From a virus (Duplodnaviria > Heunggongvirae > Uroviricota > Caudoviricetes), in the IMG/VR virus record IMGVR_UViG_2695420523_000005: a stretch of DNA of 28,861 bases; one strand, given 5' to 3'. Shown here piece by piece: positions 5,101-19,692 of the stretch (its first letter is position 1; every line of letters starts with the position of its first letter). Under the pieces are notes generated by a model, which did no database searches, was not told the origin of the DNA, and saw nothing but the letters and a program-made list of their open reading frames with translations. The position numbers were made by a program, and so were the translations under genes.

Positions 5101-6216
5101 TGAGGATTCTGCACGGGTTTCCGACGCTTTCGCGTTCGTTTCGGATGTCTTCGCTGCGGAAGCAGACCTCGCTGCTGCGCTGGCCTGTTCAGTGGCTTGG
5201 CCAGCCTTCGTTGTGGCAGTTGAAGCAGACGATGCGGCACTTTCTGCCGATTTTCCGGCGGCGGTGGCACTGGCTGAGGCCTGCCCGGCACTTGTTGACG
5301 CGGCACTGGCAGACGACGCAGCCGCTGTTTTTGAGCCTGCCGCAGCCGAGGCGCTCTGTCCCGCTGCCGTTTCAGAAGACCTGGCGTTCGTCTCGGACGT
5401 TTTTGCCGCCTTCGCGGAATTTCCTGCCGCCGTTGCCGAGGAAGCGGCATTACTGGCGCTCGAGGCTGCGCTCGTTTCTGATGATTTCGCTGCCTCTTTT
5501 GAGGCCGCCGCATCCCGGGCTGAGGTGGCAGCTTCTGACGCCTTCGTGGTCGCGGTGGATGCAGAAGTGGCTGCAGATTTTTGTGACGCTGCAGCATTCG
5601 TTTCAGATTTTTTCGCAGCAGTTGCACTCGCACTTGCGGCACTTTGTGAGGATGCCGCAGCGGATGCACTTTGAGACGCTTGAGAGGCTTTTTCTCCAGC
5701 GGCATTGGCGCTTTTTGCTGCTGCGGCAGCACTGGCCGCCGCCTCACGAGCTTTGTCGCCAGCAGCATCAATCGCGTCAGTGTTATTTTTATACCACTCA
5801 ACGTTTTCGTTGTGCTCGTTGACGATCTGCATTAGCGGCTTAACGGTCACTTCTGTACCGTCTTCACGCTCGATTGTCACCTCATCCAGCGCAGTCAACC
5901 AACTGCGTATGGACTTGGAATCAGCCGACATACGCGACATTAGCGCAGTAAAGCGCGCGCTAAACTGTGTTAAGTCGCCTTCATAGGTCGTAATGATTCG
6001 GCACGGAACTTCAGACTGAGTTTCGCCGGTATAAGGTTCTGAGAGAACAATGTTCGTATCACTGGTTACGCGCTTGATCTCATACAGCTTATTGTCGGGG
6101 CCAATGACGATCATCCCCGGCAACACACCATTAGCTGTTACGTTCCAGGCTGTCCCTGCCCCAACCAGAGTATTGCTGCCCTGTGTAAATGTGATAGTAC
6201 CTTCCCTGTACCACAT
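2188..6216 (-). CDS. stf: Side tail fiber protein (lambda Stf-like) with Ala/Ser-rich segment, GNAATATKLQTAR-type repeats and duplicated C-terminal tip-like domain
   Basis: 1342-aa ORF; ATG at 6216 with AAGGAG upstream. Residues ~150-450 (KTSETNAAASQKSAATSASTATTKASEAATSARDAAASKEAAKSSET...) closely match the lambda Stf Ala-rich region as I recall it; at least 5 copies of the N(G/T)NA(A/S)TATKLQTAR motif. Confidence 0.9.
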   Translation of the reverse strand: MWYREGTITFTQGSNTLVGAGTAWNVTANGVLPGMIVIGPDNKLYEIKRVTSDTNIVLSEPYTGETQSEVPCRIITTYEGDLTQFSARFTALMSRMSADSKSIRSWLTALDEVTIEREDGTEVTVKPLMQIVNEHNENVEWYKNNTDAIDAAGDKAREAAASAAAAAKSANAAGEKASQASQSASAAASSQSAASASATAAKKSETNAAASQKSAATSASTATTKASEAATSARDAAASKEAAKSSETSAASSASNAASSATAAGNSAKAAKTSETNARSSETAAGQSASAAAGSKTAAASSASAASTSAGQASASATAAGKSAESAASSASTATTKAGQATEQASAAARSASAAKTSETNAKASETRAESSKTAAASSASSAASSASSASASKDEATRQASAAKGSATTASTKATEAAGSATAASQSKTAAESAATRAEAAADRAEEIAGAVAMEDASLTTKGVVKLSSAVDSTSESLAATPKAVKAANDNANSRVPSNRKVNGKALTADIKLTPKDIGTLNSVTMSFSGGAGWFKLATVTMPQASSIVYIALIGGAGYNVGSPHQAGISELVLRAGNGNPKGITGALWKRTAVGLTNFAWINTSGDTYDIYVEIGNYATRVNIHWDCTANATVSIYTSPTYSASKPSSVTDGVVYTMYSTHQKPTPLDIGALPTTGGTVSGPLSVTGGLTGSLNGNASTATKLQTARSIGGVVFDGSANINLPGVNTTGNQNTTGNAATATKLQTARTIGGVSFDGTANINLPGVNTTGNQNTTGNAATATKLQTARTINGVSFDGSANIALSPANIGCPASPTGWLETGDNGASITTEQLVTLLRDNGAFNAKTWIARCAWAYANSASIPDSETGCGIIPLAGAVIEVFNKGSSSNNYTIRITTATTTGVSGALTNAEFVYVFNGTTYSPGWRRAYNTKNKPTASDVGALPLSGGTLSGGLTSSGEIVSKYANGFRIAYGKFGFFIRNDGVNTYFLLTASGDTLGSWNGLRPITINNTSGAVSIGNGLNVTGGVNGSLNGNASTATKLQTARNINGVKFDGSGDININTLVSRGRVTALSGSTQGTAGIQMYEAYNNSYPTTYGNVLHMKGASAAGEGELLIGWSGTSGAHAPVFIRSRRDNTGAAWSAWAQVYTAKDSIPGVNTTGNQNTTGNAATATKLQTARKIAGVAFDGSADITLTAANLNAYTKTEVTNLLSSYVKSSSLPSMTVRTSSVSGGDMGMSLSTFISHLKSNGAFSKSYWIGFGDAMGFNAGSINNITGFGAVELAESIIEVFNLPNGDYTIRLTTSHKADYGGVTNAILVYHYRSNRSPSGQWLKFAGTVGATSN
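3821..4141 (-). repeat. Three tandem ~120-bp coding repeats in the tail fiber gene, with related copies at ~2668..2760 and ~3051..3133
   Basis: Repeated block ...accatcaaa..acgcc..gatag....gccgtctgcaa.ttcgtagc.gt.gc.gcattacc.gt.gtgttctgattacc.gt.gt.tt.acacctgg... read directly; encodes the GNAATATKLQTAR motif. Confidence 0.8.
4867..5769 (-). repeat. Low-complexity Ala/Ser/Thr-rich coding segment of the tail fiber
   Basis: Protein residues ~150-450 are almost exclusively A/S/T/K/E; this creates long spurious ORFs in other frames on both strands. Confidence 0.85.
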
Positions 6217-6237
6217 GTTGAATATGCTCCTTGATTT

Positions 6238-6258
6238 GGCGGGCTATCCTTGCCCGCC
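6238..6258 (-). promoter_or_regulatory. GC-rich stem-loop between J and the tail fiber with AAGGAUA loop
   Basis: Perfect 7-bp stem ggcgggc/gcccgcc, loop tatcctt; followed on the minus strand by the SD AAGGAG and the fiber ATG at 6216. Confidence 0.5.
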
Positions 6259-6260
6259 AT

Positions 6261-6279
6261 TAAGTAGATACTTACCTAT
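6261..6279. promoter_or_regulatory. Junction motif taagtagatacttacctat between J and the tail fiber
   Basis: Contains the palindrome taagta ga tactta and the TACTTACCTAT core shared with 985..997. Confidence 0.35.
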
Positions 6280-6309
6280 TTTTACCGATATAAAATTTTT
6301 TTTCCACCA

Positions 6310-9300
6310 TCACAGACGGCCAATTCTTACTCGTAAGACGTTGTTATCGTCATAAACGTCAATCCGCTGACCATTTATAACCAATCGCCCATTGCCGCCG
6401 CTATTACCGTTGATCTCAAGCGTTCCATTTTTGCCGAACCGCCATCCAGATCTACCGCTAACAAAATTGGTAGATTGCAGATCGCCTACTTTTGCATTGG
6501 TGATTGTGCCATCCTTGATATACGCTCCATTCATATAGGCGATACTGTTTTCGATAACAAATGGCGTTGTGATCTTCCCGTTAACAGAGTTGACCAAACC
6601 AAACCTGTCCGCCTGAACCAAAAACTGAGATAGCCCAGTGGTGTCAATACCAAGCGCAATACCGGCAACATACTTCTGCCCTCCGCTCGTTGAAGTCTCC
6701 ATTTTCAACGTCCACGCGGTTGACACTTTTTTGTTGGTATCAGCAATAGCTGTTGCCTGCTGTTGAATTGTCGCGGTATTTCCATTCACCTCTGCTTTCA
6801 GAGTATCGATTCGCCCACTCAGAGCATTATCTGCCTGCGTTCTCGCTTTCGTTTCAGTTGTGACCGCCGCGGAAATGTTGGCTGCCGTTTGAGACTCTAA
6901 GTTTGTGATTTGAGTCGCCAATGCAGCATCTTGCTCTGTACGCGTTTTCGTTTCGGTTGCTACAGCCGCTTTAATATCCTCTTTGTATTGAGAGGTCAGC
7001 TTGGTGATCTGAGACGACAACGCCGAGTCAGCATCAGTTCGAGCCTGCGTTTCAACTGCAACGGCCGCACTAATATCTTTCGCTGTCTGTGCTTTTAAAC
7101 TTGAAACCTCTTTTGTTAAAGCGGTATCACCATCTGCACGAGCCGTTGTTTCTCTGGCAAGAGACGCCTTGAGATCATTAGCTTTTGCTGTAAGAGACGT
7201 AATCTGGGTAGACAATGCACTATCGGCATCAGTCCTTGCTTTTGTCTCTACAGCAACCGCTGCGGCAATATCAGTTCCGGTTTGTGCTCGCAGGCTGTTA
7301 ATTTCTCGTGAGAGCGCCTGGTCAGCACTTGCTCTGGCCTCCTGCTCCTGAGTGATGGCAGCGGATATATCACCGTCAACCTTTGACTGAAGCTGGTTTA
7401 TTTGTTTGGCTAACGCAGAGTCCCCGCTTGCTCGGGCCTCCTGCTCACTGCGTATTGCAGCAGAAATATCATCATCAACCTTTGCCTGAAGTTGGGTGAT
7501 CTGGCTTGCCAGAGCCGAATCTTCCGTTGCTCGGGCTTCTTGCTCTTCCTTAATAGCTGCGACGATATCGTTGCTTACTTTCGACTCAAGCTGAGTGATT
7601 TGTGTCGTCAGAGCTTCATCGGCAGATGTACGAGCCTCCTGCTCTGTACTAATCGCCGCGCTGATATCTCCTTCAAACTTAGATTGCAGCTGAGTGACAC
7701 GCTTTGCCAACGCTTCATCGCCATCGGCACGAGCGGTGGACTCTTCCAGAATACTGGCCTTAATGTCTTCGCCAATTTCTACGCGAATTTCCTCAACCTT
7801 CGTGGCCATTGCAGACATATCATCAGCAAAGGTTTTCTGTGTTGTTGCGATCTTCGCGTTATTGACCATCTGCTTGTGCTGGTCTTCATCTTGACGAAGA
7901 GCCAGGTCAATATTTGTTTTGGCCAAAGCCTCAATGTTCGTAGTCAGTTCTGCACTGGCACGATCGACCTCTGCAACCGTCTTTTTCATTTCTTCAACGG
8001 CAGCGGAGCTTTCCTCTACCGTTGACTGTAACACTTCCAGTTGTTTAGCGTTTGCAGCATCACCTTCAACACGAGCCTCGCTTTCCTTAGCAATAAGAGC
8101 CGCCGCTTCATCTCTTGCAGCCTTTATTGCCTCGACTGTATTAGCGAGAGCTTTATCGTGTTCAGATACGGTGTTTTCGATTTCAACAATTGCAGCATCA
8201 GTAGCATCAATTTTTTCAAACGCTTCATTGACCTTGTTAATCGTTGCCGAAACCTCACCTTTAAGCTCGGTTTGTGCGTTCTCCAAAGCATCGCTACGCT
8301 CGTTGAATTTTATTTCAAAACCCGCGAGGTTATCGCTGAACTGCTTATCTAATTCAGCTATATCTTCCTTAACGTCGTTTACCGCCCCCTCTAAAGATTC
8401 GACGCTCTGGTTGATATGCTCATTTAACTCGTCAACTGCTTCTTGAGAGACTTTGCTGTTGATGTCCTCAAGCAGAGCCTGACCAAGCTCGGAAGATGTA
8501 ATTTTGCCAGTCAGGAACGACAGTACATCGCGAGTTGTCGCCTCTGTACCCAAGTTTGAGTTCGGAGGACTTAACATACCTCGCTTGTTCGATGCTCGAA
8601 CCCAGTAATACCACGTTTCGCTATCCCCAAGACCAGCATGTGTAAAGGTGGTGCTTGCAGACTCTGCGATCAGTTTCGCCGTATCCAGATTGTTGGTCTG
8701 GGATGCGTAAACATTAATGTGATCAAGGTCTACCGAATCTGGATTAACCCAATTCAGTATCACATTACGATAGTCTCCAACGGCCGTTAATGACGTTGGG
8801 GCATCAGGCGGTGTCATTGTGCCCAACACCTGATAAACGGTACTGATAATCTCTGTTTTTTTACCGTTGAATGAAACCGCATACAGCTGGAAGTCGTAGC
8901 GTCCATTCTCCGCGACATTAACGATTTCGTATTGCTCTTCGGTTACACGCGCCGATTGCCAGTTCGATACATTGTTTTCATCAGAACGTCGCCAACTGAT
9001 CCAATACTCTGGAGATTTCCCTTCCCATGTTGCAGTCAGTTTTACTGACAGGTTGCCCGGGCTTGAGAGATAAGTCCCTTCAGTGATTTGCAGATTAGAT
9101 GGCTTGGAGTAAGTTGGGTCCAATACCGTCGTATTCTGCGGGATCAGCGTTGCACCATTGTCGATTGCCTCATATTTAGACGGATTGTTCTCAACAGCGG
9201 TGATGTCAAAGCTACCCGACGTTTCCCCCTGTGCGATGTTAACGATGCGAACGCGCATAGGTTCGAGATCTGATTCTGTAATTGTCCAGACACCGTTCAA

Positions 9301-11040
9301 AACAGGCGTTTCCGCTGACGACAGGGCTTTTGAAAACGTAACCTTTGTTATGTTTTCGCCAGTTTCAAGAACATCGCGTTCAACGATTTTGCCTTCCTGA
9401 TTCAATATCCGAATAAAGCTGCCGCTTTTAGCTAACGACACAGGCGCATCGAGAGTGATGCTGTTTTTGGTAAACTCCACAATTCGACCGGAGTTACGTT
9501 TACCTGCACGATATTTGTTCTGAATCAGAACGGTTTCACCAGGCATCAGAAATGAGGCGTCTAAGCCGGCAGTAAATGTAATTACATCCGACTCCATTCT
9601 GGCGGTATACAACAGCCACAAACCAACTCGGTGAGCCTGGCCTCGGCTTGTACATCCAAATGCTACGACTTCTGTTTTACGCTCACCATAACGGCGCATT
9701 GCGTCCTGATCTTCAACGTACTCGATATTTTGCTTATAACCGTCCTCCTTGTTGTTGTAGGTTACGAGCGCAACGGATGGGCGATCTTTACGCGCAGAAC
9801 CTTTATAGGTAAACAGCCCATCTTTGACGTTGGAGTTGGTAAACATCATTACCGGATCTGATGGGCTATCCTGCATGATGTTAACCATGCCACCAGCCCA
9901 AAACACCATGCCGCGGAATGCACCGGCAATATCCTGAATTAATCGGTATGCGTCTTGTCGACTGGTGATCTGCGTATTGATTGCAAAGCGTTTCTCTTTA
10001 CCCCCAAAGCCATCATCGACCTCTTCGTCACAATATCGACCAATCTGGTAGAGCTGGCCGAGGTCAATCATGGATTCCGACACAAATTGCCCAAGACCAT
10101 ACCGAGTATTGGTAAGCAAATCGTAGAGAATCCACGCAGGGTTTGAAGAAGACAACAGCTTAAAAGTACCGTCCCATACGCCGACATAAGTATTGGTGTA
10201 TTCGTTGTAGTTTGACGGTACTCGGATTTTGATACCGCGCACCAAATACGAACGGGAAGGCATTGTGCTACCAAACTGCTCTGAATTGACCTTCAAGCCA
10301 ACAAGAGCAGAGTTAGGGTAGTTCATTGGCGTGTCGACAATCTCACCGATGGAATCAACCCATGTGTCGTTGTAGAGGTACTGGCTACTATTATCATCTG
10401 TAAGACGAATCACCCTAACCTTGTATGCACGACCAGGCTTAGGCAGTTTCAGCTCATAGCTACGGTAATACACGCCGGTTTTCTTTGCCGTTAGCGTGAT
10501 ATCAACGCTTTTCTCACCTTCTGCCACTACATCAGAAAATGTTGCGTCTGCGTTGGCGATCTGGAATTTGTACTTCACCGTAGTGCCATTTGTATCGCCA
10601 GAGCTTTTATCAACGCTACGTAAAGAGGGGAATTTCATGATGACACGAACGCGATCAGCTTCATCGTTATCGATTGAAACCGTAACGTCGTGTGTTTTTT
10701 TAAGCTGAATATTTACGGACTTAGGCGTTTCAACAAAATCAAAACCAGCCATTGGCGTCTGGTCTTGTGAGCCGTCACGAAAATCCCATGTAATACCGCT
10801 GAAGTTGGAAGAGCCATCTTCATTCAAGATCGGTAAATCGTCGATGAAGATCGACTTTGCGCCATTTACCAGGCCACCGATAACCCCCTCGCCAAGAAGG
10901 TCGAGGATGGCTGCCATAGCACGAGAATTGACAGTATCATCAGCTTCAACCGGGGTACGGCTGGAGCTTTTACTTTTCTTGCCACCAGCACCGGCAATAA
11001 GAAGCGGTAATTTTTTCTTCTTGAACTGTTCCATGTCCAA
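6310..11040 (-). CDS. J: Tail tip attachment / host specificity protein J homolog with ~450-aa tandem-repeat insert and short non-lambda C-terminus
   Basis: 1576-aa ORF. Recalled lambda J blocks are conserved (NSALVGLKVNSEQFGS, AFGCTSRGQAHRVGLWL, GQKYVAGIALG...SQFLVQADR). The track start at 11040 is TTG; first ATG is at 11034; AAGGA lies just upstream. Confidence 0.92.
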   Translation of the reverse strand: MDMEQFKKKKLPLLIAGAGGKKSKSSSRTPVEADDTVNSRAMAAILDLLGEGVIGGLVNGAKSIFIDDLPILNEDGSSNFSGITWDFRDGSQDQTPMAGFDFVETPKSVNIQLKKTHDVTVSIDNDEADRVRVIMKFPSLRSVDKSSGDTNGTTVKYKFQIANADATFSDVVAEGEKSVDITLTAKKTGVYYRSYELKLPKPGRAYKVRVIRLTDDNSSQYLYNDTWVDSIGEIVDTPMNYPNSALVGLKVNSEQFGSTMPSRSYLVRGIKIRVPSNYNEYTNTYVGVWDGTFKLLSSSNPAWILYDLLTNTRYGLGQFVSESMIDLGQLYQIGRYCDEEVDDGFGGKEKRFAINTQITSRQDAYRLIQDIAGAFRGMVFWAGGMVNIMQDSPSDPVMMFTNSNVKDGLFTYKGSARKDRPSVALVTYNNKEDGYKQNIEYVEDQDAMRRYGERKTEVVAFGCTSRGQAHRVGLWLLYTARMESDVITFTAGLDASFLMPGETVLIQNKYRAGKRNSGRIVEFTKNSITLDAPVSLAKSGSFIRILNQEGKIVERDVLETGENITKVTFSKALSSAETPVLNGVWTITESDLEPMRVRIVNIAQGETSGSFDITAVENNPSKYEAIDNGATLIPQNTTVLDPTYSKPSNLQITEGTYLSSPGNLSVKLTATWEGKSPEYWISWRRSDENNVSNWQSARVTEEQYEIVNVAENGRYDFQLYAVSFNGKKTEIISTVYQVLGTMTPPDAPTSLTAVGDYRNVILNWVNPDSVDLDHINVYASQTNNLDTAKLIAESASTTFTHAGLGDSETWYYWVRASNKRGMLSPPNSNLGTEATTRDVLSFLTGKITSSELGQALLEDINSKVSQEAVDELNEHINQSVESLEGAVNDVKEDIAELDKQFSDNLAGFEIKFNERSDALENAQTELKGEVSATINKVNEAFEKIDATDAAIVEIENTVSEHDKALANTVEAIKAARDEAAALIAKESEARVEGDAANAKQLEVLQSTVEESSAAVEEMKKTVAEVDRASAELTTNIEALAKTNIDLALRQDEDQHKQMVNNAKIATTQKTFADDMSAMATKVEEIRVEIGEDIKASILEESTARADGDEALAKRVTQLQSKFEGDISAAISTEQEARTSADEALTTQITQLESKVSNDIVAAIKEEQEARATEDSALASQITQLQAKVDDDISAAIRSEQEARASGDSALAKQINQLQSKVDGDISAAITQEQEARASADQALSREINSLRAQTGTDIAAAVAVETKARTDADSALSTQITSLTAKANDLKASLARETTARADGDTALTKEVSSLKAQTAKDISAAVAVETQARTDADSALSSQITKLTSQYKEDIKAAVATETKTRTEQDAALATQITNLESQTAANISAAVTTETKARTQADNALSGRIDTLKAEVNGNTATIQQQATAIADTNKKVSTAWTLKMETSTSGGQKYVAGIALGIDTTGLSQFLVQADRFGLVNSVNGKITTPFVIENSIAYMNGAYIKDGTITNAKVGDLQSTNFVSGRSGWRFGKNGTLEINGNSGGNGRLVINGQRIDVYDDNNVLRVRIGRL
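6790..7760 (-). repeat. About ten tandem 99-bp (33-aa) coding repeats inside the J-like gene
   Basis: Periodicity visible in DNA (gctcgggcctcctgctc-like blocks near 7340, 7440, 7540, 7640) and in protein (DISAAI..EQEARASADEAL..QITQLQSKV repeated). Boundaries approximate. Confidence 0.8.
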
Positions 11041-11051
11041 AAAATCCTTGA

Positions 11052-11642
11052 TTACATAAGCTGGTCGATGGTGATAGAAGAACTCACGACCTGTGAGCCA
11101 ACTAAAATTTCCTCGCCATAGATAAGCTGTACAGGGTTCCCCTGGTTTGTTGTGTTTTGAGGTCCATCAAAGTAATAAGAGTTCGAGTTATCCGCCTGCC
11201 TCACACTTTCGTTAGTGGCTTGCGGAGATATGATTTGCGCTATACCGCCCATCATCAGTGACAAACCGAGAGGCGCAAGAGCGGGCACCCATATCGAGGC
11301 AACCATTAATACTGCTCCAACAACCGTCTGAAACCATCCAAAAGCAGATCCACCGCTTCCTCGCGGAACAGGTGTAATGCGGATTTTTGCAATATTGTCA
11401 GACTGCCCCATCATCTGATATTCACTCTCGTCCACAGACCACTTGTGGCCCTGTTTATTGGTGATCTGGATGTGGTATCTGTCATAGGTTTTGATATTGC
11501 GCTTCATCCATGCTTTAAACCCAGGCTTGTTGGCCTCAATTAAATCCAGAGCCTGTTTTGTATTACGCACCTTTAGATGCCAGTGGCGGCCAAAATGTTT
11601 GGCCATAGGGCCGCCAAGCTGCACATGAACTAACTCAGACAC
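11052..11642 (-). CDS. I: Tail assembly protein I-like (C-terminal hydrophobic segment)
   Basis: 196-aa ORF, GTG start at 11642 with AGGGAG about 8 nt upstream; N-terminal region loosely aligns with recalled lambda gpI; position between K and J. Confidence 0.75.
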   Translation of the reverse strand: MSELVHVQLGGPMAKHFGRHWHLKVRNTKQALDLIEANKPGFKAWMKRNIKTYDRYHIQITNKQGHKWSVDESEYQMMGQSDNIAKIRITPVPRGSGGSAFGWFQTVVGAVLMVASIWVPALAPLGLSLMMGGIAQIISPQATNESVRQADNSNSYYFDGPQNTTNQGNPVQLIYGEEILVGSQVVSSSITIDQLM

Positions 11643-12427
11643 GTCTCATCTCCCTTGAGCAAGTCTCTGTGACGCAAGTGATGCGTCGTATGTTTCTGAT
11701 ACATTCCGCCGTAATAAGCACGACAACTTAGGCGGTCGATCTGGTGATGAAGAATCATTCCATCGCCGATATAAACCGCGCAGTGGTCAGGCATTTTCCC
11801 GTATTGGATAAAGAATACGTCCCCACGTTGAGGCTCTGTTCCGGGCGCAAGACGCACCAATCCCTCGTTACGGTAGTTCTGATCGAGAATGTCGTTATCG
11901 CCGGTGTACCACGATGGAATATGCAGGTGTGCGTTCGGGTTTAGTTCGACGTTAAACTCACGCTTCAAATAGTCCCGACACAACATCCAGCAATCGAATA
12001 CGCCAAATACATACGGTCTACCCAGGTATGGCATTTCGAAACCATCAGGTGTGATCACATTCATCTCGCTAAAATGGAAAGGGGCATCTCCCTCAACATT
12101 CTTGCGAATAGCCAGAATCATCCACGGAACTTCCGTCGCTTCACAGCCTGCACGATCGGCATCAGATGCTTCTGCTGATTCATCAGTATGTGAATGCCAG
12201 ATTGCGATAACATCACCCGCATCCTCTGCCGCCATAATGTCGTCAACGTGCATTACAAAAGTGTTCTGCGGGTTCTCCGAAACATTTCGCGCTTCCATAA
12301 AGCGATATTTGTCGCCATTAGTTCTCACCAGAAAGCCACACGCTTCATTAGGGTAGCGATTTATGGCGCAGAGATAGATTTGCTGCATAACATCAGAGCC
12401 AAGCTCAGGGATTGCTTTATTACCCAT
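11630..12427 (-). CDS. K: Tail assembly protein K (MPN/JAB metalloprotease-like domain + NlpC/P60 domain)
   Basis: JAMM-like HSH...D motif (IWHSHTDESAEASDAD) and a downstream Cys-containing NlpC/P60-like segment (FGVFDCWML). Track start 12454 is TTG; I prefer ATG at 12427 with GGAG upstream. Confidence 0.85.
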   Translation of the reverse strand: MGNKAIPELGSDVMQQIYLCAINRYPNEACGFLVRTNGDKYRFMEARNVSENPQNTFVMHVDDIMAAEDAGDVIAIWHSHTDESAEASDADRAGCEATEVPWMILAIRKNVEGDAPFHFSEMNVITPDGFEMPYLGRPYVFGVFDCWMLCRDYLKREFNVELNPNAHLHIPSWYTGDNDILDQNYRNEGLVRLAPGTEPQRGDVFFIQYGKMPDHCAVYIGDGMILHHQIDRLSCRAYYGGMYQKHTTHHLRHRDLLKGDETCLS

Positions 12428-13118
12428 ATCGCGTAGCTCCAATAAACCCGCCAAAATGGATCACTCCGTTGGCAAAATAATTCCGACGCGCATTACAGGC
12501 GTCATAACGTTTTGTGCAGTAATCAGCACCAGACATAGACGTCTGCTGGTTATTTTTGTCGAAATATGGACCGGTATAGCCGCATTCTGGCCCTCGGTAT
12601 TTCCACGGGCAGGTGTTTTTAATGATCTGACGATACGGCAGTTGCACCCCCATCAAATCGAACACACTGGACAACTCAAACTCGACAACCTGATGAGTTT
12701 CGAGCGTTTTCTGTTCGATAAACCACATTTCATCCGGGAAATGTTGGTTTGGATCTGCTGTTGGATTACCGTCTTTAAAATTAACGGCATCGAGGAAGCG
12801 AGCCAGCGTCATCTTGCGAATAATGCGGCAGCCAACAAGATCGTCGTTCGCCTGAACTTCCGCAGAGACGGTTCCGGCAAAGTTCGATACCTGAATTTTT
12901 GGACGTGGCAACGTTCCCTGGCCAGTTTTGTCAAAGCCTGATGCTTTGATTGGCCACGGCTCGTATGTCACTCCTTGCCAGACGACCGGTTGCATCAGTT
13001 CGTTTGTTCCGGCGTGGAAGAATAGCTTCCCCCCTGAAGTTGTGTTCGACATATCCAGTACGAACAACTCAATGAGTGCAGAGGGAGATAAGCTCTGAAT
13101 ATCAGCTTTAATTCCCAT
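12420..13118 (-). CDS. L: Minor tail protein L (Fe-S cluster-type cysteine motif)
   Basis: Conserved L-family blocks (ARFLDAVNF, NTCPWKYRGPECGYTGP) match recalled lambda gpL. Track start 13151 lies inside a stem-loop; I prefer ATG 13118 (MGIKADIQ...) with AAGGA 7 nt upstream. Confidence 0.9.
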   Translation of the reverse strand: MGIKADIQSLSPSALIELFVLDMSNTTSGGKLFFHAGTNELMQPVVWQGVTYEPWPIKASGFDKTGQGTLPRPKIQVSNFAGTVSAEVQANDDLVGCRIIRKMTLARFLDAVNFKDGNPTADPNQHFPDEMWFIEQKTLETHQVVEFELSSVFDLMGVQLPYRQIIKNTCPWKYRGPECGYTGPYFDKNNQQTSMSGADYCTKRYDACNARRNYFANGVIHFGGFIGATRYG

Positions 13119-13140
13119 TGTTTCATCCTTGAAATAAGTA

Positions 13141-13163
13141 GGCGCTAACATCCTGTCAGCGCC
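13141..13163 (-). promoter_or_regulatory. Stem-loop between M and L with AGGAU loop
   Basis: ggcgctaac/gtcagcgcc with one mismatch, loop atcct on the plus strand; about 25 nt upstream of the preferred L start. Confidence 0.5.
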
Positions 13164-13170
13164 ACAATGA

Positions 13171-13194
13171 TAGTAAATTAGTACTTACTTATCC
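13171..13194. promoter_or_regulatory. Junction motif tagtaaattagtacttacttatcc between M and L
   Basis: Shares the TACTTAC core and AT-rich palindromic flanks; lies immediately upstream (minus sense) of the 13141..13163 stem-loop. Confidence 0.35.
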
Positions 13195-13200
13195 AGATGC

Positions 13201-13536
13201 TTAAGCCTCAAATACTTGTCTGAATGTAGCAGTTAAGACACAGTACCCCTGATATCGCTTGACCGTATGACTGTCACATACAACTACAATCTGCTTGCCT
13301 CTTGGATTAACCCAATAGAACGATTCAACACCTGATCGCTCAGTCAGGAAATCATCGACTGCATTAATTTCGTTGTATGATCTGGTAAAGGTTAACGACC
13401 ATTCTTCTTTAATACGATTAAGACCTTGAGCCTGTCGCTGCTCGTAGTCATCACCAAAATTAAGTACCGTTACATTCGGTTTTACGCTCTTTTCAGATTC
13501 GTAATCTGGATACCAATTAAACGTTTGTCTTTCCAT
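13201..13536 (-). CDS. M: Minor tail protein M
   Basis: 111-aa ORF between the tape measure and L, the canonical lambda order; ATG at 13536 directly follows a hairpin whose loop carries AGGA. Confidence 0.8.
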   Translation of the reverse strand: MERQTFNWYPDYESEKSVKPNVTVLNFGDDYEQRQAQGLNRIKEEWSLTFTRSYNEINAVDDFLTERSGVESFYWVNPRGKQIVVVCDSHTVKRYQGYCVLTATFRQVFEA

Positions 13537-13573
13537 CTCACATCCTTGTGAGACTGCCCCGACCGGGGCAGTC
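13537..13573 (-). promoter_or_regulatory. Two adjacent stem-loops between tape measure and M; the proximal one carries the SD (AGGA) of M in its loop
   Basis: gactgcccc/ggggcagtc (13552..13573, loop gacc) and ctcaca/tgtgag (13537..13552, loop tcct); the M start codon begins at the base of the proximal stem. Confidence 0.6.
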
Positions 13574-13578
13574 GATAG

Positions 13579-16500
13579 TTAGTTACGTTGAGTGTTTGGG
13601 TTGAGTGATCCGCCAGGGCGTTTCTCTTGAGCGATAGTCTCAAGCGCGATTGCTTTCATCCGTTGAGCGGCATTGTTCCATATGCTTTCTGTATCGCCGG
13701 ATTCTGTCGTGCTACCGTCACTATGGACGTTGATCTCAATTGATACAGGAGAAAGAACATTTCCTCCTCCACTCATACCATCGGTACTTAGCGTTACAGG
13801 GATTGTTCGACCATCAGGCAATGGAACATACGCCTCATTCATATCGCCTTCCCCAAACAACGCCAATTGAGGTGAGTTGGCGATACCGCCTTTCTGGTAT
13901 GCCCGGAGCGGGATCACGCCGTCTTTTCCGAATATTCCTCCATTTGCAAACTTCGGGATTGCAGGAATGCCATTCGTGCCATCGGCAGCAGAACTGGTCA
14001 GATTGTTGAACCCGGAAGTTGAGCCAGAAGAACCGGACATCAATCCATCGAATCCACCACCAGCCCAAGCTGAAACAAGACCAGATGCAACCGTTGCTCC
14101 AAAACTCAACCACTTATTACCAGAGCCGGAAGCATTAGCTCCAAGCATTGCAAACGCGGCAGACAGCGCGCCGGTAACAGAGCTGAGGTTCTGCATCGAG
14201 AAGATGGAGTCCTTCACTGCTTTTGTCTCAGCATCTTTGGCTTCGGTGCTATCAAATAGCCCCGATACCCAGCTACCAATCGCATTTGTTGCTGTGCCAA
14301 TTGCGCTGGTGGTCTGCTGTGTTGTTTGCCCCAATCCAGTTACCGAACTGGACGTCTCCTTCGTGGCTTCTCCTACAGACTTGTCGCCGTTAACAGTGTT
14401 GCCCATTCGTACCCCTTGATTGGCAACGGCGGAAGCAACCCCGGTCAGCAAATTACCACTCTGTGAACTACCAGCAGCGGTGGTCCCCATCCCCAACATG
14501 TTCATTAGAGGCAGCGTGATCTGCGACTTCACGACCATATTGGTGATATCTTTCAAAATGGACTGAGATAGGCTGGAGAAGCTCATCTTCCCGTTAATAA
14601 CGAAATCAGTCAGGACATCAGTTAAGCCACTAAACAAATCAGTCCAGGTGCTTTCGATCTGCTCTGCCAGGTTTTCGTATTCCAGTGCCAACTTCTGCGT
14701 CGCAGTCCCCGTCTCTTTAATAAGCGCGGTATTGCCAGCAGCAATCAGTTGATTGATTTTCTTTGTATAAAGCGCCACAACTTTAGGATCAGACGCCTTA
14801 TCACGAAGTTCTATCAACGCTTTGAGATTGCGGTTGTAGGTGTCTTCGAAATCAGCAACTTTCTCTTCACGAGACGGCGTATAGCCAGCACTAATAATGG
14901 AATCCGCCTCCGGTGCCCAAGTGGAGATCATCTGCTCAACATTGCGGCGATTAAACATCTCGCGATATTCAGGTGTCGCATTTTTGAGGTCTTCAAGACG
15001 TTTTTTCGCCTTGTCGATCATCTCTTGAGTGATGAACTCGTTAGGTACCGCATTAGCCAAATCTGTCAGCGATTTCGTTGTATCGCGAAGAGACTGATCA
15101 AACGATACCGTAGCCTTAGAGCTTTCACCCATTTGCCCCATAAGCTGATCAGCTTTGTCCAGAGCCTTCTGGTATCCGGCTGCCAGTTTCTGTTGCGCTG
15201 CCTGTTCCTTCTTGGCCGCACGCTGCGAGGCGTTAGCTGATCGTTGGGCTGCTTTCTCGGCAGCTGCTGCATCCTGTTCACGAGCTTTAGTCAGTGCAGC
15301 AATGGCTGCAGCACGCTCTTCATCGCTCATTTTCTCCAGAGAGCTGGCGCTGGATGCTTTCTGCAAATTAAGCTGCGTCTTGAGTTGTTTAGGCCCAATA
15401 ATCGGCTTACCTTCGAAGTCCATCATCGGAGTGCCGTCAGGCAAAGTACGCTGATAAGTCGCAGAATCCATCTGGTTTCGCATATATTGCGCCAGCGCCT
15501 TCTGAGCAGCTTTATCAGTTGTACCTAACCCAAGAACAGTCCCCTGGTTTGACATTACGCCCTTACCAGTTTTGGCCGCGTTATCTCTCTCGAACTCTGC
15601 CTGAGTCAGCTCCTGAGCAACGGCTTCCAAATGCTCCTGATAACCACGAATACTGCCTTGCAGTTTCTGGATCTGCTCGGTATTTCCATCCTTTTTGGCT
15701 TTTTCAAGCTGATCATTAAGAGTCGCAATTTGCTTCTCGGTCGCATTCTTACGAGAAGAAAGTGAATCAACCAGTTTTTGCGCAGGCTCCAGATAGCTTT
15801 TGTTTACCGTTTCACGTAACGGTGCCAATAGCTTGTTCTTTTCGTCATCTGAAAGTGAACCGTCATCATTGATTTTCTGGATCTTATCCAGAGCCTCCTG
15901 CCGGGCTTTCACGAATGTTGCCGCGAAAATCTGGTTTTCCGCTCGAATTTTCTCAATCTGAGATTCGGCAGCCTCTTTAGCCAAACGCTTTGCTACAGCG
16001 CCGTCACCAAGAGCTATCGTGCCGGTTATCTTTTGATACTCTTCCTGATTTTTTTTCAGGCGTGCTTCGATGTCAGCCTTCGACTCTTTGTGAGTAATAA
16101 CACCGGCAGAGTTAGATACGTAATTAACACCCTCACCAGTTTTTAATGCTCGTTGATCAGCAAGAATCTGCTTTTCGAGCTTTTCTGCGCGGTCGGCCAT
16201 TTGTGCACGTTTGGCCGCTGTCATCGCTTCTGGTATTTTCCTAATCTCGTCAACGACCTTTGAAGTTTCGCTGCGGAGCATGGTCATGTACGTGATTAGG
16301 CCAGCAACAGCTACAGTGGCAACTGTAAATGCTGCCCCTATAGGGTTTGCTGCAATGAACGCCGTTAATCCAGCAAAAGCGCCTTTAAGCCCCGTAATCG
16401 CCCCACGGATGGCGAAAATAAGAGAGGGGATCGGAGCCAGCCCCATACGTGCCGCACGATTGAATCGAGTTACTGCTGTAGCGCCGAGGTTAAATGGAGT

Positions 16501-18168
16501 CTGTATGGCGGTCGCCATCGTGGCAAAGGTGCTAACCATCTGGCTCCCAGCGCCAACTACCCCCATGATCCCTGCTCGCATCAGTTTGAACGCAACCATC
16601 GCGGCCACGACCTTACCGAGATTAATTACCAGCTCTTGGTTCTTTGCTAACCATTGAGCAAGCTGACGCAACCCATCGATTGCCGTTGTTAACCCCGAAC
16701 CTAAAGAATTGGCAAACGAAATCCCTTCGGCGCTATTCATGATTGAAGCCAGTTCTTTCATCCCCTTCGATAGAGAATCCAGATATCCGGCCTGACCAAC
16801 CCGATCAGCAAATAACGTGAATGACGTCTGAAGTTGCGCCAGCGCACCTGTGTAGGTTTGCATCATGTCTTTCGCTGCGTTCTCATTCTCCGCACGCAGA
16901 CCAACAAACATCAGAGACAACGCCTGTTTTGCCTCAACCGTACCGCTGGCAACGGCTTTAGTCAGTTCCCCCATAGTGATGCCTGCGGCGTCTGCCATTG
17001 CCTGCATCGCGTTAGGAACGGCTTCACCTAATTGCTGACGTAGCTCTTCCATTGACACGACGCCCTTACCGGACATCTGCTGAACGGCCACAGCCGCACG
17101 TTTCAACAGCTCACTATCACCACCAAAACGAGCAACGGAGTCCACCAGCGCCTTCAGAGAGCCATCGGTTGGATCTAAGCCAGCAGAACGAAACTTCACG
17201 AAGGAATCTGTTAACGCCTGCATCGCGAACGGCGCATTTTGAGCCATGTCTACGATGTACTTCATGTCATCGGCGGCAGCCTGGCCAGGGTTAGACTTCT
17301 CCTTATTCAACCCACGAAGCATCACCCGCATACGTTCCATTTCGGCCGCAGCTTCAACAATAGGCTTCTGCCATCCAAACATGATGTCAGTAACCGTTCT
17401 GGCTGCATCTCCGATCTCGCCAAGCAGGAAAATGTTGCCACGAAGGCCAGAGAACATACCTCCTTCGTTACTTTTACCGCTATGGCCAGAGCCGCTACGC
17501 CGCCCGCTGCCACCATCGCCACTTCCAGATGTACGAACGCGTACCGGCTTGCTAATCAGTTGCTGACGTCCGATAACTTCGTCCATCTGCTCACGAACCT
17601 TTTTCAGTCCCTCGGCAGCCTGACTCGTTGTGACACCCCAATTACTGAGTCGCTTCGTCGTGGTATTAAGGCGCGTATTCATGCCACTCACGGACGCAGA
17701 GGCTTCTTTGACCTCCGTACCAAAGCGGCTTGCGCTTTTGCTTGCATAGGTCGCCCAATCAGAGAAATCATTTAGCTCTGATTGCACTTTACGTAATGAC
17801 GCGGTGAGTTTATCTACTGAAGAAGTTGTCGTATCGACGCGCTCAATCAGGGCTTTAAGACCAGAATTGAGGCTGGTGATGTTGCCACGCATTTTACGCG
17901 TAGCATCTGAAGCAAGCTCAAAACCGGCAGCTACATCCTGTAGTTTATCTGCCGTAGAATCGAGCTTGCTTTCCAGAACGCCAATGATACGGGCGACCGA
18001 ACCCAAAGAGCGTTCAAAGGTTTGGATTTTTTGAGCAGGCTTTGTTACCTGCTCACCAAATCGAGTAAGCAGTTTCCCCGCACGATCGATTGACGCTGTA
18101 AACTGTTTGTCTTCCAGCGACAGGATAAACTCTACGTTTTGTGACATTCCCTTGTCATCCTCTGCCAA
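13579..18168 (-). CDS. H: Tail tape measure protein
   Basis: 1529-aa ORF, largely helical/coiled-coil with Gly-rich C-terminal part and hydrophobic central segments; position after G/GT. Start is TTG at 18168 (MAEDDKG... resembles recalled lambda gpH N-terminus MAEPVGD); first ATG is at 18147. Confidence 0.9.
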   Translation of the reverse strand: MAEDDKGMSQNVEFILSLEDKQFTASIDRAGKLLTRFGEQVTKPAQKIQTFERSLGSVARIIGVLESKLDSTADKLQDVAAGFELASDATRKMRGNITSLNSGLKALIERVDTTTSSVDKLTASLRKVQSELNDFSDWATYASKSASRFGTEVKEASASVSGMNTRLNTTTKRLSNWGVTTSQAAEGLKKVREQMDEVIGRQQLISKPVRVRTSGSGDGGSGRRSGSGHSGKSNEGGMFSGLRGNIFLLGEIGDAARTVTDIMFGWQKPIVEAAAEMERMRVMLRGLNKEKSNPGQAAADDMKYIVDMAQNAPFAMQALTDSFVKFRSAGLDPTDGSLKALVDSVARFGGDSELLKRAAVAVQQMSGKGVVSMEELRQQLGEAVPNAMQAMADAAGITMGELTKAVASGTVEAKQALSLMFVGLRAENENAAKDMMQTYTGALAQLQTSFTLFADRVGQAGYLDSLSKGMKELASIMNSAEGISFANSLGSGLTTAIDGLRQLAQWLAKNQELVINLGKVVAAMVAFKLMRAGIMGVVGAGSQMVSTFATMATAIQTPFNLGATAVTRFNRAARMGLAPIPSLIFAIRGAITGLKGAFAGLTAFIAANPIGAAFTVATVAVAGLITYMTMLRSETSKVVDEIRKIPEAMTAAKRAQMADRAEKLEKQILADQRALKTGEGVNYVSNSAGVITHKESKADIEARLKKNQEEYQKITGTIALGDGAVAKRLAKEAAESQIEKIRAENQIFAATFVKARQEALDKIQKINDDGSLSDDEKNKLLAPLRETVNKSYLEPAQKLVDSLSSRKNATEKQIATLNDQLEKAKKDGNTEQIQKLQGSIRGYQEHLEAVAQELTQAEFERDNAAKTGKGVMSNQGTVLGLGTTDKAAQKALAQYMRNQMDSATYQRTLPDGTPMMDFEGKPIIGPKQLKTQLNLQKASSASSLEKMSDEERAAAIAALTKAREQDAAAAEKAAQRSANASQRAAKKEQAAQQKLAAGYQKALDKADQLMGQMGESSKATVSFDQSLRDTTKSLTDLANAVPNEFITQEMIDKAKKRLEDLKNATPEYREMFNRRNVEQMISTWAPEADSIISAGYTPSREEKVADFEDTYNRNLKALIELRDKASDPKVVALYTKKINQLIAAGNTALIKETGTATQKLALEYENLAEQIESTWTDLFSGLTDVLTDFVINGKMSFSSLSQSILKDITNMVVKSQITLPLMNMLGMGTTAAGSSQSGNLLTGVASAVANQGVRMGNTVNGDKSVGEATKETSSSVTGLGQTTQQTTSAIGTATNAIGSWVSGLFDSTEAKDAETKAVKDSIFSMQNLSSVTGALSAAFAMLGANASGSGNKWLSFGATVASGLVSAWAGGGFDGLMSGSSGSTSGFNNLTSSAADGTNGIPAIPKFANGGIFGKDGVIPLRAYQKGGIANSPQLALFGEGDMNEAYVPLPDGRTIPVTLSTDGMSGGGNVLSPVSIEINVHSDGSTTESGDTESIWNNAAQRMKAIALETIAQEKRPGGSLNPNTQRN

Positions 18169-18822
18169 ATATTTGCATCAGTTGCTCTTTGGCGTCAGGG
18201 TCTGCCTTATCCTGGCTTGGATCGTAGACTTTATCTGTTACGACTGGTCTTCCAATCCTGAGTTGCAAACCCTCCATGAACGCCTTCACAGCCTCGCCAT
18301 CCGCCTGGGACGCACGAGCGACTTGTAAGTTGCGGACATCCTCTTCCGCACGCAGACGGTCTATATTGCGACTGAGCATCCAGAACATCGTGAGAGGAAC
18401 GTTCAGTAGCTCTAATGGCGACACGGCGTAGTGAGCAACTACACGACTGAAATAGAATCCGAGATCTATTGAGACGGTCCTTGTCCCGGATTCATCGCGG
18501 GAAATTACTTTGCCCCTTCGCCAGCCGCTTTTTCGTTTTCTTCATCAATCACTTCCATAGCGAAGGTGAAGATCTGCTGGAGTTGCGGAACAGTCAGTTT
18601 TTCAAGAACTTCATCAGGCACTGAAGGGATAACCTTACGAACCAGATCTGCATAAGCTGTCACTTGCTCAACAGGAGACATGTTCATGAGATCTTTTCCT
18701 TCCATCTGCTTGATGGAAACGAACAGACCTACCGTCATTTCAACGATGGGATATTCCTGACCGCCAAATTTGATGCTTTTCTTCGGAGGCAGAATGGAAT
18801 CGAGATCGAGTAATTTGGTCAT
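18155..18822 (-). CDS. Tail assembly chaperone G-T fusion produced by programmed -1 ribosomal frameshift
   Basis: The downstream ORF (track 18155..18424) is in the -1 frame relative to G and that frame is open from 18541, giving a 36-nt overlap window (18508..18541) containing an AAAAAG run at 18528..18533. The slip site is not the canonical lambda GGGAAAG. Confidence 0.6.
18505..18822 (-). CDS. G: Tail assembly chaperone G
   Basis: 105-aa acidic ORF immediately upstream of the tape measure; ATG 18822 with AAGGA upstream; stop TAA at 18507..18505. Confidence 0.8.
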   Translation of the reverse strand: MTKLLDLDSILPPKKSIKFGGQEYPIVEMTVGLFVSIKQMEGKDLMNMSPVEQVTAYADLVRKVIPSVPDEVLEKLTVPQLQQIFTFAMEVIDEENEKAAGEGAK

Positions 18823-18833
18823 TGGTTAAAATC

Positions 18834-18864
18834 CTTTTAAAAGAGAGGCTCATCCTGAGCCTCT
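18834..18864 (-). terminator. Terminator/attenuator-like stem-loop downstream of the major tail gene
   Basis: 9-bp stem agaggctca/tgagcctct (18844..18864) with 3-nt loop; followed on the minus-strand RNA by CUUUUAAAAGGAU, then the ATG of G at 18822. Confidence 0.55.
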
Positions 18865-19624: not shown

Positions 19625-19672
19625 TGATGGAAAACTCCTTTTTCCGTTAATTCTACGCATTCATTGCGCTAA

Positions 19673-19692
19673 TAGTAAGTATATACTTACTA
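19673..19692. promoter_or_regulatory. Perfect 20-bp AT-rich palindrome tagtaagtatatacttacta upstream of the major tail gene (recurrent TACTTAC junction motif)
   Basis: The sequence equals its own reverse complement; lies between the upstream stop (19699) and the major tail start. Confidence 0.4.

Follow-up and report, generated by a model that had tools for sequence, protein, structure and literature searches.

The window analysed here, a stretch of 28,861 nucleotides (IMG/VR record IMGVR_UViG_2695420523_000005), covers the structural and lysis module of an SSU5-like phage-plasmid, with its genes on the minus strand. Escherichia phage CMS-2020a shares 98% identity with it, Cyrano 97% and SSU5 81%. 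The SSU5-like phage-plasmids, which include pHCM2, pMT1 and Cyrano, occur widely among clinical Escherichia, Salmonella, Klebsiella and Yersinia. The viral operon that will occupy us is late, polycistronic and roughly 28 kb long, and five of its 5' leaders hold a hairpin with a GGA in the loop. Following the minus strand, one lies in the terS leader, H4 between the major tail protein gene and the G-position gene, H3 at the start of the minor tail gene M (Pfam PF05939), H2 between M and L (Pfam PF05100), and H1 between J and the tail-fiber gene.

The first-pass annotation had placed four hairpins on the mRNA strand with AGGA or AGGAU in their loops; all four are real and carry AGGAU, with folding energies of -9 to -16 kcal/mol, and a fifth, which it had missed, is found upstream of terS. 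H1 (6237-6259, minus strand) folds as UGGCGGGC-AAGGAUA-GCCCGCCA at -16.2 kcal/mol, with its GGA at 6247-6249. H2 (13141-13163, minus strand) reads GGCGCUGAC-AGGAU-GUUAGCGCC (-15.3 kcal/mol; apex ACAGGAUGU; GGA at 13151-13153), and H4 (18844-18864, minus strand) reads AGAGGCUC-AGGAU-GAGCCUCU (-13.5 kcal/mol; apex CAGGAUG; GGA at 18853-18855). The minimum free energy structures of these two also pair the flanking C-A with U-G, and only a GGA triloop stays open, exactly as is predicted for the units of CsrB. H3 (13537-13552, minus strand) is the Shine-Dalgarno (SD) hairpin of M, CUCAC-AAGGAU-GUGAG, and its folding energy is -8.9 kcal/mol when it is extended to 13535-13554. M has only this one site, and, as had been proposed, the loop GGA is itself the SD, exposed in a hexaloop with the AUG (13534-13536) at the foot of the stem. 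The terS-leader hairpin (28596-28617, minus strand), UAGAGCGC-AUGGAC-GCGCUCUG, presents its GGA (28605-28607) in an ANGGAN hexaloop. The GGA sits in the apical loop in five out of five cases, as it does in CsrA/RsmA sites. The stems of H1, H2 and H4 are G+C-rich, 8-10 bp long and worth -13 to -16 kcal/mol, while H3 has 5 bp and the terS hairpin 7-8 bp.

The folding of whole junctions retains H1 to H4, with z-scores of -2.7 to -5.5 relative to dinucleotide shuffles (H1 -2.9, H2 -3.6, H3 -5.5, H4 -2.7). In the window, hairpins of -8 kcal/mol or lower with a GGA in the loop number five on the sense strand and one on the antisense strand; dinucleotide shuffles contain 1.47 of them on average, and at least five in 2 of 200. 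The motif is restricted to a subset of hairpins, as had been noticed, for it is present in 5 of the 9 strong intergenic sense-strand hairpins of the window. Among the others, the hairpin upstream of gp7 (22257-22276, minus strand) and a second one (23220-23246, minus strand) do lack GGA, but the loops quoted for them, GAAA and GUAUA, were those of the plus strand, and the mRNA reads UUUC and UAUAC. Strong hairpins without GGA follow the major capsid gene as well as the Ig-like gene. The post-tape-measure hairpin (13552-13573, minus strand; GACUGCCCC-GGUC-GGGGCAGUC; -18.0 kcal/mol) abuts H3; it carries no GGA in the window, and its counterpart in the L080/L081 clade has gained an apex of CAGGAAG, which lies 20 nt upstream of the SD hairpin of M. 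In the whole 108 kb of Cyrano, where 78 intergenic sense-strand hairpins were scanned, stable intergenic hairpins with a loop GGA are found essentially only at the late-operon junctions.

Apart from M, each of these genes has a second GGA, closer to the start codon and overlapping the SD. That of terS (28581-28583, minus strand; GAGGGAUCU-AUG, start at 28577) lies 24 nt downstream of the loop GGA. The G-position gene has AAAGGAU (GGA at 18832-18834, minus strand; AAAAGGAUUUUAACCA-AUG at 18822), 21 nt downstream of the GGA of H4. In front of L, the SD region (13121-13135, minus strand; UUUCAAGGAUGAAA-CA-AUG, start at 13118) holds AAGGAUG, with the GGA at 13126-13128, 25 nt downstream of the loop GGA of H2; part of it, UCAAGGAUGA, is a 10-mer also present in E. 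coli CsrB. The tail-fiber gene has AAGGAG (GGA at 6228-6230, minus strand; CAAGGAGCAUAUUCAAC-AUG at 6216), 19 nt downstream of the GGA of H1. The second SD that had been described for the fiber, L and G is therefore present; it had also been called unstructured, and here the SDs of L and G are able to fold into weak A/U hairpins, for which no covariation was seen. The start of L has to be corrected as well: the AUG of the longest open reading frame (13151) falls inside the loop of H2, the N-terminal extension it would give is not conserved, and the true start is the AUG at 13118. The ordinary SDs of this phage are mostly AAGGA(U/A), and the hairpin loops also resemble copies of them.

The comparison with about 80 related phage-plasmids, whose M proteins are 71-99% identical, was made on 19-31 distinct variants per hairpin, with pairing in a slid register as the control. 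All five stems keep their pairing through compensatory changes, with 89-99% of the cells paired against 16-69% in the slid register, so that the covariation asked for when the hairpins were first described is indeed observed. H4 is 99% paired, with four pairs changed on both sides and the loop GGA kept in 23 of 25 variants; H2 is 96.7% paired; H1 is 90.6% paired, again with four pairs changed on both sides; and H3 is 89% paired, with two such pairs. The terS hairpin is kept at 75 of 76 terS loci (98.5% of cells paired, one G-C to A-U compensatory pair). The loop GGA is nearly invariant while the stems change. In the Klebsiella-type clade, an unrelated M/L stem, UCAACGUCAC/GUGACGUUGA, surrounds the same CAGGAUG, and CAGGANG is invariant at this junction despite the stem replacement; in L033 the fiber-leader stem is wholly different (CAGC-AGGAA-GCUG), yet it bears AGGAA as its loop. 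By comparison, the hairpin upstream of gp7, used as a control, has at least 11 different loops among the relatives, none with GGA.

The conserved loop pattern is A(N)GGAN, with U, A or C, and rarely G, 3' of the GGA. Among the relatives, the loops are AUGGAC, AAGGAA or AAGGAU at terS and AAGGAU, AUGGAU, AGGGAC, AAGGAC or GAGGAU for H1. Variants with AUGGA or AGGGA, whose complementarity to the anti-SD is only 3 nt, are common (AUGGAC at 31 terS loci, AUGGAU at 18 V/G loci, and AUGGAU, AGGGAC and AUGGAAC at J/fiber), and such loops (AUGGAC, AUGGAU, AGGGAC) arose independently at three junctions. The distance between the two GGAs is also kept, at 17-27 nt in every one of the 103 variants of the four junctions (terS, 24-26 nt in 21 variants; G, 20-26 in 23; L, 23-26 in 30; fiber, 17-27 in 29). 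The loop GGA is absent from some lineages (AUGAU in L012, AGGCA in L043 and L046, AUUCAU in L052, AGAAU in L070, a repeat insertion in L030), which means that the element is dispensable in some backgrounds. The relatives taken together show that an apical loop with GGA, set about 20 nt ahead of a ribosome-binding site, is under selection, and this holds even if the ligand is not CsrA.

The host protein CsrA is the candidate that this pattern brings to mind. Its known determinants are a GGA in a hairpin loop, the CsrB repeats CAGGA(U/A/C)G, and the SELEX consensus RUACARGGAUGU with a hexaloop closed by AC/GU, to which the complexes of RsmE add the ANGGAN hexaloop (PMC7652899). In Salmonella in vivo, the top CsrA motif is AUGGA in apical loops (PMC5207318). 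The phage sites match them closely: H2 and H4 are exact CAGGAUG motifs with self-complementary arms, like the CsrB units ACAUCAGGAUGAUGA, CUUCAGGAUGAAG and GUUCAGGAUGAAC; H3 contains ACAAGGAUGU, which corresponds to the SELEX core ACARGGAUGU in the majority SELEX structure, a hexaloop closed by AC/GU; and the hairpin of the terS leader has C-AUGGAC-G. H1, C-AAGGAUA-G, is one nucleotide beyond ANGGAN, a pattern to which its relatives conform with AAGGAU, AUGGAU and AGGGAC. The likeness to CsrB and CsrC (RsmY/Z) extends to the base after GGA, which is U, A or C also in the variants of the phage relatives, and the E. coli CsrB sequence is a series of xxxCA-GGA-UGxxx hairpins of the same type as those of the phage. 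CsrB, however, is a sponge with 22 GGA motifs in 369 nt, whereas the phage has about 9 GGA sites over 22 kb of coding mRNA, each beside a start codon, which suggests targets rather than a sponge.

The closest parallel among mRNAs is the glgC leader of E. coli. CsrA can bridge two sites that are 10-63 nt apart, with an optimum of about 18 nt or more, a single site being allowed, and glgC is the model of a hairpin site coupled to an SD site (PMC7652899). There, an apical-loop GGA hairpin is followed by an SD GGA within this distance (PMC7652899); its sequence, CACAC-GGAUU-GUGUG, stands 31 nt upstream of the SD AAGGAG. The leaders of terS, G, L and the fiber gene are arranged likewise, with spacings that fall inside the bridging range. 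It differs in being the 5' leader of a chromosomal metabolic gene with a 5-bp stem and four CsrA sites, whereas the putative phage sites are intercistronic, with stems of 8-10 bp that are richer in G+C. H3 rather recalls the control of pslA by RsmA, in which the SD region lies in a hairpin that the bound protein could stabilise; but the SD of pslA pairs with an anti-SD, whereas that of H3 is in the loop with the spacer in the stem, and the binding to H3 is a prediction.

Some features fit CsrA less well. SELEX ligands mostly have four or fewer contiguous pairs, a tendency rather than a strict rule, and very stable stems are suggested to be unfavourable (PMC7652899); H1, H2 and H4 are well above this, with H3 and the terS hairpin coming closer. 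Extra loop nucleotides reduce the affinity of RsmE (PMC7652899), and the 7-nt loop of H1 counts against the CsrA reading. A weight matrix built from the 22 GGA contexts of CsrB, which holds little information outside the GGA itself, ranks the SD of L first and H4 eighth among the 432 sense-strand GGAs, with H1 37th, H3 133rd, the terS hairpin 143rd and H2 172nd, so that it does not single out the hairpins. The assignment to CsrA would rest on a short motif of low information, which overlaps the SD consensus.

This overlap raises the question of whether the ribosome itself could be the ligand, the loop GGA being either a standby site or auxiliary SD that recruits the 30S subunit and raises or buffers translation, or a decoy that lowers it. 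The four loops first described are AGGA or AAGGA, with 4-5 nt of anti-SD complementarity, and resemble phage SDs; the real ribosome-binding sites follow 10-25 nt downstream of the hairpins, so that, as with known standby sites, a 30S-accessible element would precede them; and in the case of M there is no question that the loop motif serves as the SD. We nonetheless hold this explanation to be unlikely. Standby sites are not defined by a conserved apical-loop GGA, and what is conserved here is A(N)GGAN rather than an extended anti-SD complementarity. Loops with AUGGA are frequent, and their poor pairing with 16S rRNA speaks against a standby site: at terS, V/G and J/fiber, the AUGGA and AGGGA loops leave three complementary bases, and those with AUGGA are poor 30S ligands. 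A G after the GGA would extend the pairing with 16S rRNA, yet it is rare, and SD cores without GGA, such as GAGG, never replace the loop motif. Furthermore, apart from H3 none of the loops is followed by a start codon at the distance of an SD, and only H3 joins a conserved complementarity to 16S rRNA of at least 4 nt with a start 5-10 nt downstream. The first-pass annotation had left the choice between standby site, decoy and a recognition element for an RNA-binding protein; the loop pattern, its AUGGA and AGGGA variants and the 17-27 nt spacing would be better accounted for by CsrA than by a standby site, and the comparative data favour a binding protein, with host CsrA as the candidate.

The hairpins could also be purely structural, without any loop ligand, and set the relative abundance of operon segments by acting as intrinsic terminators of partial strength, by blocking 3' exonucleases or by stabilising the 5' ends of transcripts that start at internal promoters. 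They stand downstream of the V, tape-measure, M and J stop codons; the equivalent spots after the major capsid and Ig-like genes hold the strong hairpins without GGA mentioned above; H2 passes a terminator-like scan (tail UACUUAUUUC) and H4 is followed by CUUUUAAAA; and H1 and H2 each have just to their 5' side a palindrome that resembles a promoter or operator, so that these two could be 5'-terminal stem-loops. This is a distinctly improbable account, which leaves unexplained the near-invariance of the loop GGA over drifting stems, the unrelated replacement stems that again bear AGGA, and the free change of the loop in the gp7-upstream control. As terminators the hairpins are poor, since only H2 passes the scan, which H1 (AAAUCAAG), H3 (AUGGAAAG) and the terS hairpin (UGUGUGUU), all devoid of a U tract, fail; the tail of H4 has four U, and this U tract is lost in the Klebsiella-type clade (GUAUGAGUUU). 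Very improbable, finally, is a phage-encoded RNA-binding protein, a late translational repressor or activator that would read the GGA loops in the manner of the RNA-phage coat operators or of T4 RegA. The elements are limited to the late operon in this phage family, which has many proteins without known function and one annotated as an ASCH RNA-binding-domain protein, and, as in the coat protein-replicase operators of MS2 and Qβ, a small hairpin placed where a cistron of a polycistronic phage RNA begins would tune downstream translation. Those operators, however, bind a phage protein through another type of loop (AUUA with a bulged A, for example), nothing points positively to such a protein here, and the motif coincides in detail with the specificity of CsrA. 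Cyrano has no CsrA homolog of its own by tblastn or phmmer --max with E. coli CsrA (best E-value about 0.8).

Our best explanation is host CsrA, and we consider it evenly balanced whether the five hairpins are CsrA translational operators acting in cis on the late polycistronic mRNA. Every host of the SSU5-like family is known to have CsrA, and none of the papers found in our literature search connects CsrA with SSU5-like phages or with the tail genes of phages. From the matches described above we infer CsrA as the putative ligand, and with it in which direction and to what end the regulation may work. In the leaders of terS, the G-position gene, L and the fiber gene, one face of the CsrA dimer would bind the hairpin loop as the high-affinity site, and the second face would span the 17-27 nt to the SD GGA and occlude the ribosome-binding site, as in the glgC leader. 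For M, CsrA bound to the loop SD would clamp H3 and block the 30S subunit. The net effect would be a CsrA-dependent damping or gating of the translation of packaging and tail genes, which may serve to adjust the stoichiometry of the products, to silence leaky late transcripts while the phage persists as a plasmid-prophage, or to tie virion output to the Csr status of the host.

It is a tentative proposal, a little short of an even chance, that host CsrA is built into the late-gene programme, with five operators that gate terS and four tail genes. If so, virion production would depend on the Csr/BarA-UvrY state of the host or, alternatively, lytic growth would bring so much late mRNA that CsrA is titrated and the metabolism of the host rewired. 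Phage structural mRNAs would then join the CsrA regulon, and this would apparently be, within the literature that we searched, the first known global bacterial translational regulator used as a checkpoint for phage structural genes. Conserved operators of the CsrA type would add an easily testable post-transcriptional layer to these phages, tied to a central regulator of carbon metabolism and stationary phase. Even without CsrA, the GGA-loop design rule helps the annotation of start codons, as in the mis-called start of L, and the engineering of these phages.

The window spans the module of structural and lysis genes in an SSU5-like phage-plasmid; its identity is 98% with Escherichia phage CMS-2020a, 97% with Cyrano and 81% with Salmonella phage SSU5. 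Every gene is encoded on the minus strand: terS opens the late operon and is followed by terL, portal, capsid genes, major tail protein, a 105-aa gene at the G position, tape measure, M, L, K, I, J, the tail fiber and the lysis genes; Pfam confirms M (PF05939) and L (PF05100). Along this operon, five hairpins present a GGA in their loop. Four of them had been described in the first-pass annotation and are found exactly where it placed them, on the minus (mRNA) strand: H1 before the fiber gene (6237-6259; UGGCGGGC-AAGGAUA-GCCCGCCA, -16.2 kcal/mol), H2 before L (13141-13163; GGCGCUGAC-AGGAU-GUUAGCGCC, -15.3 kcal/mol), H3 with the M start codon directly 3' (13537-13552; CUCAC-AAGGAU-GUGAG, -8.9 kcal/mol for the extended stem) and H4 before the G-position gene (18844-18864; AGAGGCUC-AGGAU-GAGCCUCU, -13.5 kcal/mol). 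Folds of the whole junctions retain all four, and their z values relative to dinucleotide shuffles lie between -2.7 and -5.5. The fifth, missing from that first list, lies upstream of terS (28596-28617, minus; UAGAGCGC-AUGGAC-GCGCUCUG) and was found by a systematic hairpin search. This search returned five stable GGA-loop hairpins on the sense strand, every one of them in a 5' leader, and a single one on the antisense strand; 200 shuffles averaged 1.47, and two of them reached five.

The motif belongs to a subset of the hairpins, being absent from four of the nine strong intergenic ones on the sense (minus) strand: 23220-23246 (loop UAUAC), 22257-22276 (UUUC), 13552-13573 (GGUC) and 2117-2151 (AUAAAUA). 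The first two had already been cited as lacking GGA, which holds, although their loops had been quoted in plus-strand orientation. An Rfam scan of the whole window (E <= 1) gave no match at the hairpins. Two sub-threshold isrG-like matches fall at 5277-5650 on the plus strand, antisense within the repetitive part of the tail-fiber gene; they score 21 and 18 bits, where the gathering score is 100, and are most likely due to chance.

In the case of M, the loop GGA is itself the Shine-Dalgarno (SD) sequence, as initially proposed, and the 3' arm of the stem forms the spacer. For the fiber, L and G, a second SD closer to the start had been claimed, and a GGA-bearing SD indeed lies downstream of each loop. 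The distance from loop GGA to SD GGA is 24 nt for terS, 21 for G, 25 for L and 19 for the fiber, and it stays within 17-27 nt across 103 variants of these four leaders. The start-proximal SDs of G (UUAAAA-GGA-UUUUAA) and L (UUUCA-AGGA-UGAAA) can be drawn as mini-hairpins that are paired in most variants, but these were set aside, having no both-side changes and many unpaired cells. Another SD, that of the major tail protein gene, likewise occupies a weak hairpin's loop (GGAAAA-AGGAG-UUUUCC; 19627-19660 in the window, 9060-9090 in Cyrano), and the longest ORF of this gene begins, like that of L, upstream of the annotated, conserved start. As for the terS leader (28584-28620, minus), it has a slightly more stable alternative fold, UUUUAGAGCGCAUGGA-CGCGC-UCUGUGUGUUUUAGAG (-14.4 kcal/mol alone), which is part of the leader's -18.5 kcal/mol MFE, uses a direct repeat of UUUUAGAG and buries the AUGGAC-loop GGA in base pairs. 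This fold might be a switch, or it may have arisen by accident in the window's clade, as it is the GGA-loop hairpin that the relatives favour.

We compared the junctions in 80 related loci that include all four junctions of H1-H4, retrieved via the M protein, in 76 loci retrieved via terS, and in four further loci, including Yersinia pestis pMT1 and Kluyvera, which were the only usable ones gained from a scan of genome contigs for more distant relatives. Removal of duplicates left 19-34 distinct variants per junction. As the automatic classifier of the strongest hairpin at times chose an adjacent AAGUA/UACUU palindrome over H1 or H2, the M/L and J/fiber counts were taken from alignments. The phage collection offers no intermediate junctions to compare, because its M homologs drop from at least 80% identity straight to below 40%, and those below 40% belong to lambda-like phages, in which the tape-measure gene H overlaps M. 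Among the relatives, compensatory change maintains all five stems: the paired cells amount to 99% at V/G (H4), 96.7% at M/L (H2), 89% at the M SD hairpin (H3), 90.6% at J/fiber (H1) and 98.5% at terS, with 4, 2, 2, 4 and 1 pairs changed on both sides, respectively. At each of the five junctions, pairing is far above that of slid-register controls.

The loops follow the pattern A(N)GGAN, in which the neighbours vary and the GGA is almost invariant. They read AGGAU, AGGAA, AUGGAU or AGGA at V/G; AGGAU, AGGAA, AGGAC or AGGAG at M/L; AAGGAU, AAGGAA or AAGGAC at M; AAGGAUA, AAGGAU, AUGGAU, AUGGAAC, AGGGAC, AGGGAU or GAGGAU at J/fiber; and AUGGAC, AAGGAA or AAGGAU at terS. In a Klebsiella-type clade, the M/L stem is unrelated (UCAACGUCAC/GUGACGUUGA) and the apex CAGGAUG is the same; locus L033 has a wholly different pre-fiber hairpin, CAGC-AGGAA-GCUG; and in the most distant clade (L080/L081) a CAGGAAG apex has been acquired on the post-tape-measure hairpin, 20 nt upstream of the M SD hairpin. 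If the loop motif itself were not under selection, these three cases would be difficult to account for. The control hairpin, upstream of gp7, retains its stem, but at least 11 different loops occur on it and GGA is never among them. The motif is gone from some lineages (AUGAU, AGGCA, AUUCAU, AGAAU, a (GGTGAT)n insertion), so the element is not indispensable. At the M/L junction of locus L030 (~10334-10420), a (GGTGAT)n microsatellite replaces H2 and its loop GGA, and the L SD region is retained. In the complete Cyrano genome, stable intergenic hairpins on the sense strand number 78 and are mostly tetraloop terminators, and the GGA is truly in the loop at the late-operon junctions and in three weak, unrelated hairpins; the feature is thus specific to packaging and tail genes.

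In the stretch 13116-13151 (minus), the longest L ORF opens at an AUG (13151) within the H2 loop, a start also annotated in Cyrano (CYRAN_17). The 11-codon N-terminal extension that results is unconserved, and in the Klebsiella-type clade a UGA directly follows the loop AUG. This places the true start at AUG 13118 (MGIKADIQ...), with the SD AAGGAUG, and the L protein as annotated probably has 11 residues too many.

Directly 5' of H1 and H2 lies an A/T-rich palindrome, (G)AUARGUAAGUA-N-UACUUAUC (e.g., TAGATAAGTAAGTACTTATCTA in relatives), which is intergenic and precedes many operons, early and late. It occurs on the minus strand of the window at 28712-28727, 26674-26691, 23251-23264, 19676-19689, 13172-13192, 6261-6278 and ~920-941, and in Cyrano (L001/L082/L083) at 31297, 35608, 38253, 52660, 72600, 96691 and 105108. 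Its arms are conserved in sequence and do not covary, which points to an operator or promoter element recognised in the DNA by a dimeric regulator. The M/L copy overlaps a sigma-70-like match (TGGATA-17-TATCAT), from which transcription would start at the 5' end of H2. The hairpin that follows the major capsid gene (23220-23246, minus; AAAGGGUGGGC-UAUAC-GCCCACCCUUU(UU)) has a stem and loop almost invariant in every clade, with UAUAC as the loop of 22 among 26 variants, and its flanking proteins diverge; such conservation is unusual for a plain terminator.

The anatomy of the five leaders matches that of CsrA/RsmA targets, in which a GGA is displayed in a hairpin loop (PMC7652899). H2 and H4 read CAGGAUG, like the CsrB repeats CAGGA(U/A/C)G; H3 reads ACAAGGAUGU, like the SELEX consensus RUACARGGAUGU, which for the most part forms a hexaloop with an AC/GU closure; and the terS hairpin reads C-AUGGAC-G, like the ANGGAN hexaloop of RsmE-RNA structures (PMC7652899). 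In Salmonella, the top in vivo CLIP motif is AUGGA in apical loops (PMC5207318). The units of the E. coli csrB gene are xxxCA-GGA-UGxxx hairpins of the same type, and one of them shares the 10-mer UCAAGGAUGA with the L SD. A CsrA dimer bridges two sites at distances of 10-63 nt (optimum ~18 or more), and the paradigm is glgC, with a high-affinity hairpin site and a lower-affinity site over the SD (PMC7652899); its leader carries CACAC-GGAUU-GUGUG 31 nt upstream of the SD GGA. It is on this match that we propose host CsrA as the putative ligand of the five leaders, a reading whose chances we hold to be even. Against it, the motif has a low information content, H1, H2 and H4 have stems far more stable than those of typical SELEX ligands, the H1 loop has 7 nt, and a linear weight matrix built from CsrB GGA sites does not discriminate the hairpins.

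Since the SD overlaps the CsrA motif, and the ordinary SDs of this phage are themselves AAGGA(U/A), the natural rival is that the loop GGA acts as a ribosome standby site or decoy. We consider this unlikely: loops with AUGGA or AGGGA, in which anti-SD complementarity is down to 3 nt, are frequent and have independent origins at three junctions, the GGA is followed by U, A or C and rarely by G, though G would lengthen the pairing to 16S, and GGA-less SD cores never substitute. A purely structural role, as terminator or stabiliser, accounts for the stems but not for the loops, and is less probable still; as terminators, the hairpins were rejected, only H2 passing a terminator scan. A protein-bound palindrome at the DNA level was likewise rejected for the GGA hairpins, because their arms covary instead of being conserved. 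The ligand could also be encoded by the phage, which seems the least probable of these readings: the loop specificity fits CsrA, and a search of the complete, 97% identical Cyrano genome for a CsrA homolog (tblastn and phmmer --max, with the verified E. coli sequence as query) found none, the best E being ~0.8. To our knowledge, CsrA is present in every host.

The literature searched contained no account of an action of CsrA on SSU5-like phages or on late, tail or structural genes of phages, nor anything relevant on SSU5 regulation, and the paper describing Cyrano mentions neither CsrA nor post-transcriptional control. If host CsrA is the ligand, it would bind the five leaders and occlude their ribosome-binding sites, bridging the loop GGA and the SD GGA at terS, G, L and the fiber, and clamping the SD hairpin at M. 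The GGA hairpins are best regarded as new, predicted cases of a known type of cis-element, whose setting is unusual in that they are intercistronic and spread along a viral operon.
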